From positions 128,001 to 192,000 of the forward strand of contig CP066684.1 of NCBI GenBank assembly GCA_016432325.1: a stretch of DNA of 64,000 nucleotides, given 5' to 3'. Each line of letters opens with the position of its first letter. The stretch's first letter is position 1. A program made the position numbers and the translations under genes. This DNA is from Candidatus Aenigmatarchaeota archaeon (GTDB taxonomy: Archaea; Aenigmatarchaeota; Aenigmatarchaeia; PWEA01; JACQIF01). Under the pieces are notes generated by a model, which saw nothing but the letters and a program-made list of their open reading frames with translations, was not told the origin of the DNA and made no database searches. Positions 30,693 through 64,000 of this stretch are shown in pieces.

Positions 30693-30712
30693 GAACTTCA
30701 CCAATTTCCTCG

Positions 30713-30795
30713 TGGGATGTACGAGAACCACGTTCTCGACATGTCGAAATTCCACGGAATTTCGTACAACTTGAAATCGCATTTCATTGTTCCCA
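30713..30795. repeat. Multi-branched palindromic element
   Basis: TGGGA/TCCCA, TGTAC/GTACA, GAGAAC/GTTCTC, GACATGTC, GAAATTCC/GGAATTTC and TGAAAT/ATTTCA stems, most of them abutting. Confidence 0.8.
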
Positions 30796-57883: not shown

Positions 57884-58672
57884 CTAGCCCATCGCATATC
57901 CGTTCCTGTTCCAGTGGTTGTCTATCCACAGGCGGGCTCTCTGTTGTTTGTCGTAGTCCAGTGAAACATGACCTTCTGAAATGAGTTCGACTGCTTTGAC
58001 GAACGCAGGAACGTCGCACAGGCGTTTCATCTTCTCCTGGTGAGCCGCGGCGAACGCTTCCAGACTCGATTCGTGGTTGAATATCTCTTCTGTCATTCCT
58101 TCCACAGGCAGCGCTTTCGAGCGCACGAGTATCGGGCCCTGGTCGGGCTCCTCGCTCATCAGATGAATCGTTGAGCGCGTCTCGTTTTCGCCTGCTCTCA
58201 GAGCCTTCAGCACAGCACGGTCTCCTGTGTACTTCCTACTGCCGTGTTCGTCCGTAGAGGCCAAGTCGGCCGGATGCACGTTGAAGACAGGGAAGCGTTT
58301 TATTACCGGCGCCGTCAGCTTCTTCATGTAACCGGACGCGATGATTATGTCTGTTTTGAACCGCTCAACTTCCATCAAGTCATCGAGAAGTAGTGTGCCC
58401 GCCCTGTCGAACAGACGCCGCGTATCCATATCCTTCAGGTTCGGCTGGTCGCTGTTGGCGTAGAACTTTTCCATGTCATTGACGATAACGGGTATTTCGT
58501 GCGATTCGAACCATCCGAGCGCTCCGGCCTTCGAATTGTCTGTATAGCCCGCTTTCAGAGGCCAGCGTTCGTGGATTGCTTTAGCGCTCGACGCGCCTCC
58601 GCTGAAAAAGGCGACGATGCCTATGTCTTCAGGTTTTCCAGAATAGATTGCGTGCTGCTCGTGAGCCTGCAT
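57884..58672 (-). CDS. purN: Phosphoribosylglycinamide formyltransferase
   Basis: FFSGGAS, ASGYM, NVHPADL, T.STIH, D.GPI; divergent from purL. Confidence 0.85.
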   Translation of the reverse strand: MQAHEQHAIYSGKPEDIGIVAFFSGGASSAKAIHERWPLKAGYTDNSKAGALGWFESHEIPVIVNDMEKFYANSDQPNLKDMDTRRLFDRAGTLLLDDLMEVERFKTDIIIASGYMKKLTAPVIKRFPVFNVHPADLASTDEHGSRKYTGDRAVLKALRAGENETRSTIHLMSEEPDQGPILVRSKALPVEGMTEEIFNHESSLEAFAAAHQEKMKRLCDVPAFVKAVELISEGHVSLDYDKQQRARLWIDNHWNRNGYAMG

Positions 58673-58688
58673 GCAGATACGAACGAGT

Positions 58689-58708
58689 CGAAAGTATATA
58701 TCCTTTCG
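58689..58708. promoter_or_regulatory. Symmetric bidirectional promoter for purN and purL
   Basis: CGAAAG-TATATATC-CTTTCG, with start codons roughly 25-30 nt away on each side. Confidence 0.65.
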
Positions 58709-58725
58709 GTGCGCACGTGCGTTCG

Positions 58726-61700
58726 ATGGCCGTTTCTGTCATACAAGTGGGGTACAAGGCAGACCAGCGCGACCCTGACGGGGAAAAGACGCTGCGCGAG
58801 TTGCGCAACGCGGGTTTGCGTGTCGAAGACGTCCGCGTGCTCAAGAACTATCGAATCGAGTCAGACCTGCTACAGGACGAACTCGAGCGCCTCACGCGTG
58901 GACTGTTCTTGGATCCTATAGCACAGCAGGTCTCTCTCAACGAACCTCTTGACGTGCCCGCTGACGCAGCCGTAGAGGTCGCATTCAAGGGGGGTGTGAC
59001 GGATAGGGAAGGCCGCACGGCGCAAGAAGCCATCTCGGACTTTCTCGGCAGGTCGTTTGAAGGGAAGGTATACACATCAGCAGAATATCTTCTCAGAGGA
59101 GGTTTAACAGACGCTGAACTCGAACGCGCCTCCTCGATGCTGCACAATTCGCGGATAAAGGATGCCACGGTAACGCGCACACGGGAACTGAGAACCGCCG
59201 TGCCGCATGTTGACGGCGCCCATGAGATACGCGTGGATACAGTAGACCTCAACGTATCAGACGAACAGTTATTGTCCATAAGCAAACGCGGCACCCTCTC
59301 TCTTGATTTGAAAGAAATGAAAACAATGCAGGAGCACTTCGTGAGACCAGCAATCGTCCAGGAGCGCGTCTCCATGGGCTTCCCTGTCGCGCCCACTGCC
59401 GCAGAAATCGAGATACTCGCGCAGACGTGGTCCGAACACTGCAAACACAAGATATTCAACGCCGTGGTCGATTACACGAATCTGGATACGGGCGAATCAC
59501 GTACCATAGACAGCCTCTTTGAGACATGCATCAAAGGGCCGACAGAACGCGCGATGAAGCGCGGACGCACGCCGATAGTCGTCGCATTCAAGGACAACGC
59601 AGGCATCGCAACGTTCAACAAGGGCTGGAACTACTGCGAAAAATTTGAGTCGCACAACCACCCGTCCGGCTTGGACGGGTACGGTGGCTCGATGACAGGG
59701 CTTAACGGAGTTCAGAGAGACATATTAGGAGCCGGTCTAGGCGCTAAGCTGATAAGCGGACATTTTGCCTACCATTTGGGCCCCCTGGACTACGAAGGCC
59801 CACTCAAATCGAGGTTCCACCCAAGGGATCTTCTGTCCGCCATCCATAAAGGAGTCGTGGACGCCGGAAACCAGACGGGCATCCCAACCACGAACGGTTC
59901 TGTCCGCACGGACCTCGGTTGGCTCGGTAAACCGGGCGTTCTTGTCGGCGCCAGAGGAATAATGCCTGCAGAGATAAACGGCCGACCGAGCCACCTTAAG
60001 GAAATCAGACCGGGTTACGCTGCTATCATGATTGGTGGTCGCGTCGGCAGGGACGGCATACACGGCGCGACAGCGTCCAGCGGTGGTCTGCATAAGGAGT
60101 CGCCGACATCGTCTGTCCAGCTCGGGGATCCGATAGTGCAGAAGAGGGAAATGGACCTCCAGATGGAAGCCCGTGATAGAGGCTACTATACGGGTGTCAC
60201 AGACTGCGGTGCTGGCGGTCTTAGCTCGAGCATTGGCGAGACAGCGCAGCTTAGCGGAGGAGCAGAAGTTGACACAAGTGTCGTGCCCCTAAAGCACGGG
60301 TTCCTTCAGCCAGATGAGACTATCGTTTCTGAATCCCAAGAACGCATGGTGGTAGCTGCTCCTCGGGAGAATGTGCCGGCCTTCCTCGAACTCTCGCGAA
60401 AGAGACATGTCGAATCCACGGTGGTCGGCAAATACACAAACACAGGCAAGTTCCACGTCCACCATGGAGGCAGGCCTGTCGCGTATCTGGACATGGAGTT
60501 CCTGCACAACGGCGCGCCGCGCAAGCGACTTGAGGCAGAATGGAGAAAGCCAGTCAACCCGGAGCCGAGGTTCGCCCGTTCTTCGGGGAGGCGGCTTGAC
60601 GAGGAACTATTGATGCTCATGTCAAGACCCAATCTCGCCAGCATAGAGGTGCTCATGCGTCAGTACGATCACGAGGTTCAGGGCGGCAGCGTCATCAAAC
60701 CCTTCGTTGGTAAGAATCGAGACGTCGCGAGCGACGCTGTCGTGCAGAGGCCTCTTCTGGATTCGATGGAGGGTCTTGCTTTCAGTCAGGGAAGCAACCC
60801 AGACCTGAGCCGTATCGACACGTATCACATGGCTACGAACGCGATGGACGAGGCTGTACGGCGCGTCGTGGCCGTGGGCGCTCCTCTCAGGCGGCGCGAC
60901 GGCAAGGATAATATTCTGGTCAACGACAACTTCTTCTGGCCTTCGCCACTCTTCGACGCCAAGAATAACCCGGATGGTAAGTACAAGATGGCCCAACTCG
61001 TCAGGGCGAACGAAGGTCTCGCCGCTTATGCGCAGTCAATGGGCGTTTGGCCATTTTCAGGAAAGGACAGCATGTCAATGGATAGCGAACACGACGACGG
61101 AACAGGAAAGATAACAAAGGTTTCGGGCTTGCCAATGCTCCTCATCTCAGCCAGCGCCAAGGTCGAGGACGTGCGCGACTGCGTGACAATGGACTTCAAA
61201 CAGAAAGGCGATGTGGTTTACATTGTCGGCAAGACAGACGGCCGGATGGGCGCGTCAGAGTTTGCGTTGATGAACAGCGAGAATGCTATAGGCAACGATG
61301 TTCCAGAGGTTAACTTCCGCACGTCCAGGCGCACTTACGCGCGAACGCACGACGCGATAGCTCGCGGGCTCGTAAGCTCTGTTCACGGCTGTTACAAAGG
61401 AGGTTTGGCTGCTGCGCTCGCGCAGAGCGCAATTGGCGGCGATTGCGGCGTGTCGGTAGATATCGGTTCCTATGCGGATGTCTGCGGTACCACAGATGTC
61501 GAGACGCTCTTTGCAGAGACGCCTTCGCGTTTCGTGGTCAGCGTCTCGCAGGAGCGTGCCAGAGCGTTCGAGCGTCTCATGGGACCCGTTACGGCTGCGA
61601 AGATAGGGCATGTGAATGGAGGGGCCAGATCGGTGGACGTGAGCTTCTATGGGCGTCATATCATAGAAACGGAGACGCAAGAGTTGCGAGACGCATCCAA

Positions 61701-61740
61701 ATCGACATTCAAGAGTTGGGAGTATGAACCGAAAGCCTAG
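58726..61740 (+). CDS. purL: FGAM synthase PurL with fused PurS-like N-terminus
   Basis: AQTWSEHCKHKIF, KFESHNHPS, GRDGIHGAT, DCGAGG, SESQERM, QYDHEVQG, SGKDSM. Confidence 0.95.
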   Translation: MAVSVIQVGYKADQRDPDGEKTLRELRNAGLRVEDVRVLKNYRIESDLLQDELERLTRGLFLDPIAQQVSLNEPLDVPADAAVEVAFKGGVTDREGRTAQEAISDFLGRSFEGKVYTSAEYLLRGGLTDAELERASSMLHNSRIKDATVTRTRELRTAVPHVDGAHEIRVDTVDLNVSDEQLLSISKRGTLSLDLKEMKTMQEHFVRPAIVQERVSMGFPVAPTAAEIEILAQTWSEHCKHKIFNAVVDYTNLDTGESRTIDSLFETCIKGPTERAMKRGRTPIVVAFKDNAGIATFNKGWNYCEKFESHNHPSGLDGYGGSMTGLNGVQRDILGAGLGAKLISGHFAYHLGPLDYEGPLKSRFHPRDLLSAIHKGVVDAGNQTGIPTTNGSVRTDLGWLGKPGVLVGARGIMPAEINGRPSHLKEIRPGYAAIMIGGRVGRDGIHGATASSGGLHKESPTSSVQLGDPIVQKREMDLQMEARDRGYYTGVTDCGAGGLSSSIGETAQLSGGAEVDTSVVPLKHGFLQPDETIVSESQERMVVAAPRENVPAFLELSRKRHVESTVVGKYTNTGKFHVHHGGRPVAYLDMEFLHNGAPRKRLEAEWRKPVNPEPRFARSSGRRLDEELLMLMSRPNLASIEVLMRQYDHEVQGGSVIKPFVGKNRDVASDAVVQRPLLDSMEGLAFSQGSNPDLSRIDTYHMATNAMDEAVRRVVAVGAPLRRRDGKDNILVNDNFFWPSPLFDAKNNPDGKYKMAQLVRANEGLAAYAQSMGVWPFSGKDSMSMDSEHDDGTGKITKVSGLPMLLISASAKVEDVRDCVTMDFKQKGDVVYIVGKTDGRMGASEFALMNSENAIGNDVPEVNFRTSRRTYARTHDAIARGLVSSVHGCYKGGLAAALAQSAIGGDCGVSVDIGSYADVCGTTDVETLFAETPSRFVVSVSQERARAFERLMGPVTAAKIGHVNGGARSVDVSFYGRHIIETETQELRDASKSTFKSWEYEPKA

Positions 61741-62584
61741 GGTTGCCGTGCTGACAGGAGACGGGATAAACTGCGAGGTCGAGATGGCCTACGCCTTCCG
61801 ACTTGCGGGCGCGCAAGCCGACATCATACACCTGACAGACCTGTTCAACGGGGACAGGACGCTCGAACCGTACCAGATGCTTGGGCTTCCCGGAGGCTTC
61901 CATGCGGGTGATGATCTCTGTTCTGGCAAGGTTCTGGCCAACCAACTGCGCACGAAGCTGCGCGAACCTCTCGCGGAGTTCGTTGAAGACGGAAAGCTCA
62001 TGATCGGAATATGCAACGGTTTCCAGGCTCTCGTGCGCGCGGGGATGCTGCCTGCAACGGACGGCATAGACTGGAAGAGCGACGACCCGCAGGTTTACCA
62101 GCAGGCGACGCTCGCGGCGAACGACTCCGGCCGTTTCGAAGACAGGTGGGTTACTGTACGAACTCCCACTATGCTGGAAGAGCTCATCGATACAGATGGT
62201 CCTGTCACGCCCTTCACAAAGTACGTGCGCCAGATCGATTTGCCCGTTCGCCATGGAGAGGGCAAGTTCGTATCTTCCAGAAAAATGATGGATAAGATGT
62301 GGAGCAACAGGCAGATATCATACCTATACGCCAACCCATGCAGTGGAGAAAGGACGGCCGGCTATCCGTGCAACCCCAACGGAGCGATGGACGACATCGC
62401 TGCGATTTCAGACCCCACAGGACGCATCTTCGGCATGATGCCGCATCCCGAGGCTTACAACCACCCCACAAACCACCCCGACTACACGCGCTGGCCCAGA
62501 GAGAAGAGGCGGGCCATGAAGGAAGGCGAAGGCATAGCCATTCTGCGCGGCGGAGTGGAATATGCGCGAGAGCGGCTGCTTTAG
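61724..62584 (+). CDS. purQ: FGAM synthase glutaminase subunit
   Basis: GINCE.E, PGGF..GD, GICNGFQ, HGEG, GMMPHPE. Confidence 0.96.
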   Translation: MNRKPRVAVLTGDGINCEVEMAYAFRLAGAQADIIHLTDLFNGDRTLEPYQMLGLPGGFHAGDDLCSGKVLANQLRTKLREPLAEFVEDGKLMIGICNGFQALVRAGMLPATDGIDWKSDDPQVYQQATLAANDSGRFEDRWVTVRTPTMLEELIDTDGPVTPFTKYVRQIDLPVRHGEGKFVSSRKMMDKMWSNRQISYLYANPCSGERTAGYPCNPNGAMDDIAAISDPTGRIFGMMPHPEAYNHPTNHPDYTRWPREKRRAMKEGEGIAILRGGVEYARERLL

Positions 62585-62591
62585 AAATTAT

Positions 62592-62700
62592 TGGAGCGGG
62601 GGTTGGGAATTGCACCCAAGTAGATCCGCTTTCCGGCATGTCGGAAAATCGCGTTTCCGCACGCCTGCAGGCGGACGCATAGCTGCTCTGCCACCCCCGC
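62592..62700 (-). tRNA. tRNA-Cys(GCA) with a 34-nt intron at 37/38 (62631-62664) and encoded CCA
   Basis: GCGGGGG/CCCCCGC acceptor stem, U73 then CCA, TCCGC/GCGGA anticodon stem, CT-GCA loop, TTGGG/CCCAA T-stem; 75 nt after intron removal. Confidence 0.92.
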
Positions 62701-62701
62701 G

Positions 62702-64000
62702 TCACTTGATGAAACGCCACCTCGGGCCTTCCGACGTATCTTGGACTTCAATTCCGTACTGGTCCAAGAGCCTCTTCCGCAGCTCGTCCGCGGCCGTGAA
62801 GTCCTTCTGCTTCCTCATCTCTTCCCTCTGTTCGATAAGCTTCTTAACCTCGGCGGGTAGAGGGCGTTCCTCTTTTCTGAGTACGGCAAGGACACTGTCA
62901 AAGTCGTGCATTGTGTCGAGTACTCGCTGCGCGTCGCGGGAAGCCATCGCCTTCGTTTCGAGCAGCTTGTTGATGGAACCCACGAAGTGATGCAGAGATG
63001 CCCACATCTCCGGCACGTTAAGGTCATCGTCCATCGTGCGCTCGAACTCTTTGCGCACCTCGGCGACCAGCTTGCGTACGGCTGTACTGCTCTTCCCGTT
63101 CTTGTGACGTGCGAGCCGATCCATGAACTCGTCGAGCTTGTCGAGCGTGTTCGCGGCGTTCTTCAGCGACTCCCAGCTGAAAAGCTGCTGCGTGCGATAG
63201 TGCGCGGTCAGGTAAAAAAACCTCAGCTGGCGCGGCGTGAACGTTTCGTCGATAACGCTCTGCAACCGCAGGAAGTTCCCTTTGGATTTTGCCATCTTCA
63301 AAGGCCGGGCCTTTGAAGTTTCCGACCAATTGTCGGAAATTTTTGTGTCGCTCACGTTCAGGAATTCGCAGTGGAACCAGTACTTGGCGAAAGGACGGCC
63401 TGTGGCCGCCTCGCTCTGCGCGATTTCATTCGTGTGGTGTACGGGTATGTGGTCTATGCCTCCGGCATGTACGTCGAGCGTGCGTCCCAGATACTTCATT
63501 GCCATCGCAGAGCACTCGATGTGCCAGCCGGGGAATCCTCGGCCCCAGGGCGAGTCCCATTCCATGTGGCGTAGCGTGCCCGCAGGAGTGAGTTTCCACA
63601 GCGCGAAGTCCGTGGCGTTGCGCTTGCCTGCCGTGACCTCGACGCGCGCGCCTGCCTTCAATCCTTCGATGTTCAGGCGCGCCAGCTTCCCGTAATCCTT
63701 GAGCCTGGACGTATCAAAGTAGACTCCATCGCGTATCTTGTATGTGTAACCCTTGCGTTCGAGAGTTCTGACGAGAGTAATCTGTTCACTTATGTGGTCT
63801 GTCGCGCGGCACCAGATGTCAGGCATGAGTGCGCCCAGAAGCTCCAAGTCGTTCTTGAAGACCTTCTCGTAAAACGCAGCAATATCCCAGGCGCTCTTAT
63901 GCTCGCGCTGCTCGGCGACTACCATCTTGTCCTCTCCCTGATCGGCGTCATCGGTCAGGTGCCCGACGTCCGTGACGTTCGTGACGTGCTTGACGCGGAA
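62702..64000 (-). CDS. cysS: Cysteinyl-tRNA synthetase (5' end outside the window)
   Basis: NVTDVGH, DFALWK, WDSPWG.G.PGWHIECSAM, GGIDH..HH.NE.AQ, KMAKS, HYR. Confidence 0.97.
   Translation of the reverse strand, partial: FRVKHVTNVTDVGHLTDDADQGEDKMVVAEQREHKSAWDIAAFYEKVFKNDLELLGALMPDIWCRATDHISEQITLVRTLERKGYTYKIRDGVYFDTSRLKDYGKLARLNIEGLKAGARVEVTAGKRNATDFALWKLTPAGTLRHMEWDSPWGRGFPGWHIECSAMAMKYLGRTLDVHAGGIDHIPVHHTNEIAQSEAATGRPFAKYWFHCEFLNVSDTKISDNWSETSKARPLKMAKSKGNFLRLQSVIDETFTPRQLRFFYLTAHYRTQQLFSWESLKNAANTLDKLDEFMDRLARHKNGKSSTAVRKLVAEVRKEFERTMDDDLNVPEMWASLHHFVGSINKLLETKAMASRDAQRVLDTMHDFDSVLAVLRKEERPLPAEVKKLIEQREEMRKQKDFTAADELRKRLLDQYGIEVQDTSEGPRWRFIK
63296..63340. repeat. 45-nt double-palindrome in-frame insertion in cysS
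   Basis: CTTCAAAGGCC-G-GGCCTTTGAAG directly abutting TTTCCGAC-CAATT-GTCGGAAA. Confidence 0.85.

Follow-up and report, generated by a model that had tools for sequence, protein, structure and literature searches.

The stretch of DNA analysed here (‘the window’, 64,000 nt) corresponds to genome positions 128001-192000 of a genome assembled as a single 874,869-bp contig, which has a G+C content of 55.9% and is 90% complete. Two adjoining genes at the end of the window, both on the minus strand, encode a cysteine--tRNA ligase (CysRS) and a tRNA-Cys, and each of them is interrupted. The features of this locus (in window positions) are as follows:

62592 to 62700, minus strand: tRNA-Cys(GCA) gene with encoded CCA, called by ARAGORN with introns allowed; the cloverleaf and all pairs were checked by hand and by structure evaluation
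62631 to 62664, minus strand: tRNA-Cys intron of 34 nt at position 37/38; it has a relaxed bulge-helix-bulge, and its body consists of a truncated copy of a repeat termed ‘module X’
62702 to 64000, with the 5' end beyond the window edge, minus strand: cysS (cysteine--tRNA ligase, 491 aa; Pfam domains tRNA-synt_1e, DALR_2 and CysS_C)
63296 to 63340, minus strand: in-frame insert in cysS, 45 nt or 15 codons, directly before the KMAKS (KMSKS) codons at 63284-63298
63296 to 63318, plus strand: C-type hairpin of the cysS double hairpin, a perfect 11-bp inverted repeat (-12.7 kcal/mol) that aligns with 20 other copies
63319 to 63339, plus strand: T-type hairpin of the cysS double hairpin, with an 8-bp stem and a 5-nt loop (-9.8 kcal/mol), which holds a 9-mer shared with the intron

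The tRNA-Cys gene starts 1-2 nt after the stop codon of cysS (on the minus strand), and no TATA-like box was seen by eye upstream of it. Because of this narrow gap and the missing box, the two genes are likely to be co-transcribed, with RNase P predicted to cut directly behind the cysS stop codon. The cysS gene is present in a single copy in the genome and matches solved CysRS structures, and no SepRS was found in the genome above its cut-off. Contigs from two other sequencing runs match the cysS locus exactly over 1701 nt, and no variant of the sequence was seen among contigs from four DNA runs; in a low-depth contig that belongs to a relative (~86% identity), positions 63241 and 63354 are joined by unknown letters. 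On the other side of the tRNA gene, an FGAM synthase ORF (1030 aa, window 58648-61740) has an N-terminal PurS domain fused to PurL and is followed by a separate PurQ gene (window 61724-62584), which overlaps that ORF by 17 nt.

The tRNA-Cys intron and module X

The tRNA-Cys gene was missed by ARAGORN under default settings and by Rfam (in both the gathering and the E-value modes), and was found by ARAGORN only when introns were allowed. Removal of 34 nt (62664-62631) produces a 75-nt canonical cloverleaf with an anticodon loop of 7 nt (CUGCAGA), a discriminator U and CCA. When scored for a bulge-helix-bulge motif, over 4 central, 5 outer and 5 inner pairs, the intron reaches 12/14: three of the four central pairs are formed (with one C-C mismatch), together with all five outer and four of the five inner pairs, and both 3-nt bulges are present, corresponding to a relaxed form of hBHBh'. 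In the splicing-competent fold, the TTTCCG of the intron and an upstream CGGAAA form the inner helix; bases 32-34 of the anticodon loop are paired with the downstream CGG, and the AAA that follows is the 3' bulge. A splicing endonuclease gene is present (PF01974 match, 97 bits, genome 849784-850062). The intron would occupy the ancestral 37/38 site and, judged from this structure and from the presence of the enzyme's gene, would be removed by the endonuclease via its relaxed bulge-helix-bulge.

In relatives, the tRNA-Cys gene was found (with ARAGORN) to carry a 37/38 intron of 18-106 nt at about ten of the loci examined. Those introns are unrelated in sequence, and most of them end in ...GGAA or ...AGAA before position 38. 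Since unrelated introns share both properties, the 37/38 site and the CGGAA end are taken to be old and dictated by the splice motif, and the interior of the intron alone to be new. An earlier interpretation made from the window's letters (the ‘sequence-only reading’) had seen in this locus a possible route for tRNA intron gain; for tRNA-Cys that proposal is unsupported, given that position 37/38 is occupied in many relatives and that the ...GGAA/A 3' end is shared among them. The tRNA-Cys case, as far as comparison of sequences can tell, looks like a turnover of intron content and not like a new intron. In the 90%-complete genome as a whole, Rfam scores only 8 tRNA genes above its cut-off, and ARAGORN, when permitted introns, detects about 10-12. 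One or more introns seem to interrupt most tRNA genes, inserts of ~140 nt in the T-loop included.

The body of the intron aligns with six other copies (one of them from a genome of the same genus) around an invariant core that includes TTTCCGACA, and it is this alignment that defines module X. In all six of the other copies a CGACAT core is followed by a second hairpin, and two of the six have the same 12-mer as the Cys intron, running on into the second hairpin; because the other copies continue in this way, the Cys intron can be read as a module X that stops early, at the splice site. Module X also includes a weak, overlapping hairpin whose polarity is that of the T-type. Its core is found 8 times in the genome, against 0.1 expected from Markov controls. 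A model of module X (‘R2’) gives 38 strand-matches in this genome and 15 in that of the same genus, with weaker matches in one further family, and the intron, itself a member of the training set, scores 55 bits.

Copies of module X, which are seen in either orientation, also lie in intergenic arrays and within inserts of ~137-141 nt that lie between the complementary T-stem halves of two other tRNA genes, where they would form part of T-loop introns as read by eye. The anticodon loops of these two genes were read (again by eye) as UCU and GUU, and ARAGORN gave no clean call on hand-spliced versions of them. The best-scoring copy of all (genome 649160-649224) lies within the span of a match to archaeal RNase P RNA (RF00373; 56 bits, below the 84-bit gathering score), and it could represent either a native helix pair of that RNA or an inserted module. 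In the window itself, a weaker module X-like match is located at 30707-30771 (39 bits with R2).

The cysS insert and the double-hairpin family

The insert adds 15 residues directly before the KMSKS motif (here KMAKS), and was found in this genome only: it is present in none of the CysRS genes of 29 relatives (genomes of the same order and class) in an alignment. It is also absent from the closest CysRS in a large protein collection (P0003, 61% identity) and from the solved CysRS that is the best-matching structure (8qhp); a search for short fragments of a closer CysRS found none above about 65% identity. The AlphaFold2 model of the enzyme, which was built with 45 homologues, has a mean pLDDT of 85.8 and falls below 50 exactly at residues 279-289, that is, between the strand preceding the insert and KMAKS. 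Such a stretch of low pLDDT is what a tolerated surface loop would look like.

In terms of DNA sequence, the insert is one complete double hairpin of ~44 nt, in which a C-type hairpin abuts a T-type hairpin; the two perfect hairpins fold together at -23.4 kcal/mol. In the genome, perfect hairpins of 7 bp or more abut one another in 53 pairs, versus 0-2 pairs in five second-order Markov controls. In total, 21 copies (the cysS insert included) were aligned, all of which consist of a C-type hairpin, a junction of 0-2 nt and a T-type hairpin, with the consensus arms CTTCGAAC (C-type) and TTTCGAAC (T-type). Across these 21 copies, 98.8% of the cells in the T-type stem pair, and 5 of its 8 pairs are changed on both sides. 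A covariance model of this family (‘R1’), in which the second hairpin alone was captured as structure (the first having been set out of register by MAFFT), detects about 30 loci in this genome; the same-genus genome (0.5 Mb, 73% complete) yields 18 matches, as compared to 0-3 in other families of the order and 0 in 19 genomes of other orders. With this model the T-type cysS hairpin, a member of its training set, scores 39 bits; copies from this genome were used to train both R1 and R2, which makes their own scores circular. The same hairpin falls into a four-copy subgroup with TTTCCG arms, a hexamer that is identical to that of the module X arms.

Two further copies of the double hairpin lie within conserved genes. 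An Lhr-type helicase gene harbors an in-frame insert of 16 residues (48 nt, genome 316898-316945) that coincides with a double-hairpin element and leaves the frame open. This insert is absent from the same-genus genome (where the helicase is 72% identical) and from eight other relatives, and since the same-genus genome lacks it, its insertion would be younger than the split within the genus. The third copy (genome 10279-10322) falls within the C-terminal tail of the Rpb7-like subunit E' of RNA polymerase, in the same frame as in cysS, and the tail peptide is similar to the peptide of the cysS insert. By inspection, no clear target-site duplication was seen at the cysS, Lhr and rpoE' sites, and a Y1 transposase (of the RAYT or IS200 type) was looked for as PF01797 and not found in the 90%-complete genome. 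The double-hairpin element would have entered cysS in frame, after the split from the nearest sampled relatives. Of all the elements at the locus, this double hairpin, in frame and next to KMSKS, is the most interesting.

Shared words and the relation between intron and insert

The sequence-only reading had noticed that TTTCCGACA and CGGAAA occur both in the tRNA-Cys intron and in the cysS insert, and both strings were indeed located in the two features. On the sense (minus) strand the intron reads ATTTTCCGACATGCCGGAAA (window 62649-62630) and the insert reads AATTTCCGACAATTGGTCGGAAA (63341-63319), ~690 nt from the copy in the intron. In the 64-kb window TTTCCGACA occurs at these two sites only, and two or more matches to it are seen in 15 of 100 shuffles; genome-wide, the 9-mer is at background (13 observed versus 9.2 +/- 2.6 expected from second-order Markov controls). 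Two hairpin patterns are enriched against genome-wide Markov controls: TTTCCG-N2-10-CGGAAA (16 strand-counts versus 3.3) and CGGRAA-N4-8-TTYCCG (46 versus 5.6). The same words would, moreover, play different parts in the two features. In the intron, TTTCCGACA would represent the invariant core of module X and CGGAAA the end of the splice motif, which provides the 3-nt bulge as well as the partner of anticodon-loop bases 32-34; within cysS, TTTCCGACA would be one arm of the T-type hairpin and CGGAAA simply the other. A complementarity between GUCGGAAA and UUUCCGAC, as had also been pointed out, exists but is trivial, since the perfect hairpin in cysS is self-complementary and contains both the word and its complement, so that complementarity to the intron follows automatically. 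The shared words and the apparent ‘cross-pairing’ stem from hairpin arms, and not from a specific interaction. The earlier reading had itself named background frequency of the motif and independent distribution of the two features as grounds for its abandonment, and this is largely what was found: the 9-mer is at background, and 37/38 introns are widespread without the insert.

The distribution of the two features among relatives bears on how they might be connected. The closest relative likewise has its tRNA 2 nt behind the stop of cysS; it lacks both the insert and a 37/38 intron, and has a T-loop intron instead. This is one data point that, by sequence comparison, would be compatible with a linked gain as well as with independent ones. 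More distant relatives have 37/38 introns without the cysS insert, and at least five more distant relatives have the tRNA-Cys gene on the same strand as cysS, 0.6-1.2 kb upstream of it. The same-genus genome assembly (73% complete) contains neither cysS nor the tRNA-Cys exons. Insert and intron were seen together in no second genome.

Three alternative explanations for the two features were weighed against this background. That the intron pairs with the insert in the cysS-tRNA-Cys co-transcript, thereby coupling tRNA processing to cysS expression, can draw upon 8 nt of perfect complementarity and upon the likelihood of a co-transcript (with the tRNA 1-2 nt after the stop codon, an arrangement that is kept in the closest relative). 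This interaction, which the sequence-only reading had offered as one of its two explanations, is nevertheless scarcely credible: when the pre-tRNA and the insert in its context are cofolded, the minimum is the sum of the separate folds (-86.2 = -54.5 + -31.7 kcal/mol) with zero intermolecular pairs, both words are engaged in stronger local helices, TTTCCG...CGGAAA-type hairpins are found at eight genome loci, and in the closest relative the genes are arranged alike and both features are missing. A common descent of the two sequences, whereby a single ancestral module gave rise both to the T-type hairpin in cysS and to the intron's TTTCCGACA...CGGAA stretch, by copying or recombination between the two neighbouring sites, is unlikely, despite several observations in its favour: the identity of the 9-mer together with a matching second arm, a module X copy from the same-genus genome that has a near-perfect palindrome at this place and resembles the cysS hairpin except for a 3-nt difference in the loop, the restriction of the TTTCCG-armed double-hairpin subgroup to four members, and the absence of both features from the closest relative. 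However, palindromes that share one arm automatically share the other, so that the match comprises ~9 nt of independent information in a 9-mer at background; in the splicing-competent fold, furthermore, the intron's TTTCCG pairs with the upstream CGGAAA, in a polarity opposite to that of the cysS hairpin, the terminal CGGAA of the intron is common to the unrelated introns of relatives, and the cysS hairpin and its C-type partner align in full to the double-hairpin family.

The third alternative concerns the insert by itself. Removal of exactly 45 nt restores the spacing before KMSKS that is seen in all homologues, the endonuclease gene is present and the genome is rich in introns, all of which would fit an mRNA intron of the archaeal cbf5 kind, excised by the tRNA splicing endonuclease. 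This possibility must be considered very unlikely, since the best bulge-helix-bulge score for a 45-nt excision is 7/14 (versus 12/14 for the tRNA-Cys intron), a value that is reached by 18% of random 45-nt cysS windows, since the perfect 11-bp hairpin ties up the bases that a central helix would require, and since the Lhr insert is likewise in frame (48 nt) and open, as expected of translated survivors. A bulge-helix-bulge reading of the insert was therefore rejected, its score of 7/14 lying inside the null distribution. In view of the missing bulge-helix-bulge signal and the locked central-helix bases, the insert is taken to be translated, and probably forms a disordered or flexible surface loop of 15 residues just before the KMSKS loop, to judge from the structural model.

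The other explanation offered by the sequence-only reading, that both features derive from one element, holds insofar as both would come from one genus-specific pool of hairpin modules, and fails in that the alignments assign them to two different module families. The cysS insert would correspond to a whole double-hairpin element, and the interior of the intron to a truncated copy of a different module, module X, in which the hairpin polarity is opposite (CGGAAA...TTTCCG, versus TTTCCG...CGGAAA in the T-type). Several lines of evidence connect the two families. Both are concentrated in the same genus; copies of the two abut at genome 127228/127298 and 607634/607676, where 0.16 such pairs are expected by chance; single T/C-type hairpins occur in T-loop introns; and a composite at genome 758960-759070 holds both hairpin kinds. 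The TTTCCG arms common to both families, and the weak hairpin of T-type polarity within module X, make recombination between them possible as far as their sequences go. The proximity of the two features to one another is itself unremarkable, because about 29 and 24 loci lead one to expect ~1 pair within 700 nt. It is thus quite likely that two separate products of one hairpin-module pool happen to lie 690 nt apart in the cysS-tRNA-Cys transcription unit. The composite at 758960-759070 lies ~55 nt downstream of a tRNA-Gly(CCC)-like gene; it contains four different hairpins (X-type, T-type, G-type and one more) and has GTGCAC words on both sides.

Comparison with known systems and possible modes of spread

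The REP/BIME and REPIN sequences of bacteria are mobilised by RAYT (Y1) transposases. The modules described here resemble them in their palindromic units of ~20-40 nt, their tandem or mosaic arrays, the compensatory changes in their stems and their lineage-specific expansion, and differ from them in that no Y1 transposase was found in this 90%-complete genome and that copies are not confined to extragenic sites. Introns of the bulge-helix-bulge type are also found in archaeal protein-coding mRNA, namely in the cbf5 gene of Crenarchaeota; the cysS insert similarly interrupts a conserved gene over a short stretch and in frame, and the archaeon likewise has a splicing endonuclease, but the boundaries of the insert are without a bulge-helix-bulge motif. 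A third comparison involves the Rickettsia palindromic elements (RPEs), which are roughly 100-150 nt in length. As with those elements, short palindromic repeats are dispersed in a reduced genome and in-frame copies are found in conserved genes, the frame of the host remaining open. The corresponding observations here are a dispersed palindromic family and in-frame copies in cysS and Lhr, the homologues of which are without them. In contrast, the element in this genome is ~44 nt long, consists of two abutting perfect hairpins and is archaeal, a sequence relationship to RPEs is not to be expected, and related modules also fill tRNA introns; the comparison to RPEs (which have been reviewed among prokaryotic MITEs in PMC10969869) is therefore one of mode and not of membership.

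Transposed bulge-helix-bulge introns in tRNA genes have been described in Thermoproteales (Fujishima et al. 2010, Mol Biol Evol 27:2233, as summarised in PMC4090602). On the basis of that summary, the likeness is that the same sequence appears in different tRNA genes and at different positions, as module X does in the 37/38 intron of tRNA-Cys and in two T-loop introns. The unit that recurs here would differ in being a module smaller than an intron, which is also found outside tRNA genes and in either orientation, and the site of the tRNA-Cys intron would be old, its content alone being new. A literature search found no description of such hairpin modules in DPANN archaea.

If one genus-specific pool supplies the body of a canonical tRNA intron as well as in-frame protein inserts, its products are to be seen side by side at this locus. 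The cysS insert touches the KMSKS catalytic loop of the sole CysRS found in the genome, and offers a natural test of the tolerance of that loop to insertion; the insertion events, of which the Lhr insert that is missing in the same-genus genome is one example, are concrete and datable. The idea of a communication between intron and insert, on the other hand, can be dropped. A bolder extension of the preferred reading, which we regard as improbable, is that the genus pool moves independently of a transposase among tRNA introns, RNase P RNA, intergenic DNA and ORFs (including the catalytic loop of CysRS, an essential tRNA ligase), perhaps spreading through tRNA splicing and ligation, by insertion at the RNA level and copying back into DNA. 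If true, it would tie archaeal bulge-helix-bulge introns directly to mobile DNA and would provide a mechanism for the growth and gain of introns.

Hairpins also occur in a larger arrangement, an array of three, at genome 13806-13877 and 370026-370097 and also upstream of cysS in the closest relative. One of its three hairpins is a palindrome with two TTTAAA words, which is possibly a bidirectional promoter or terminator element.
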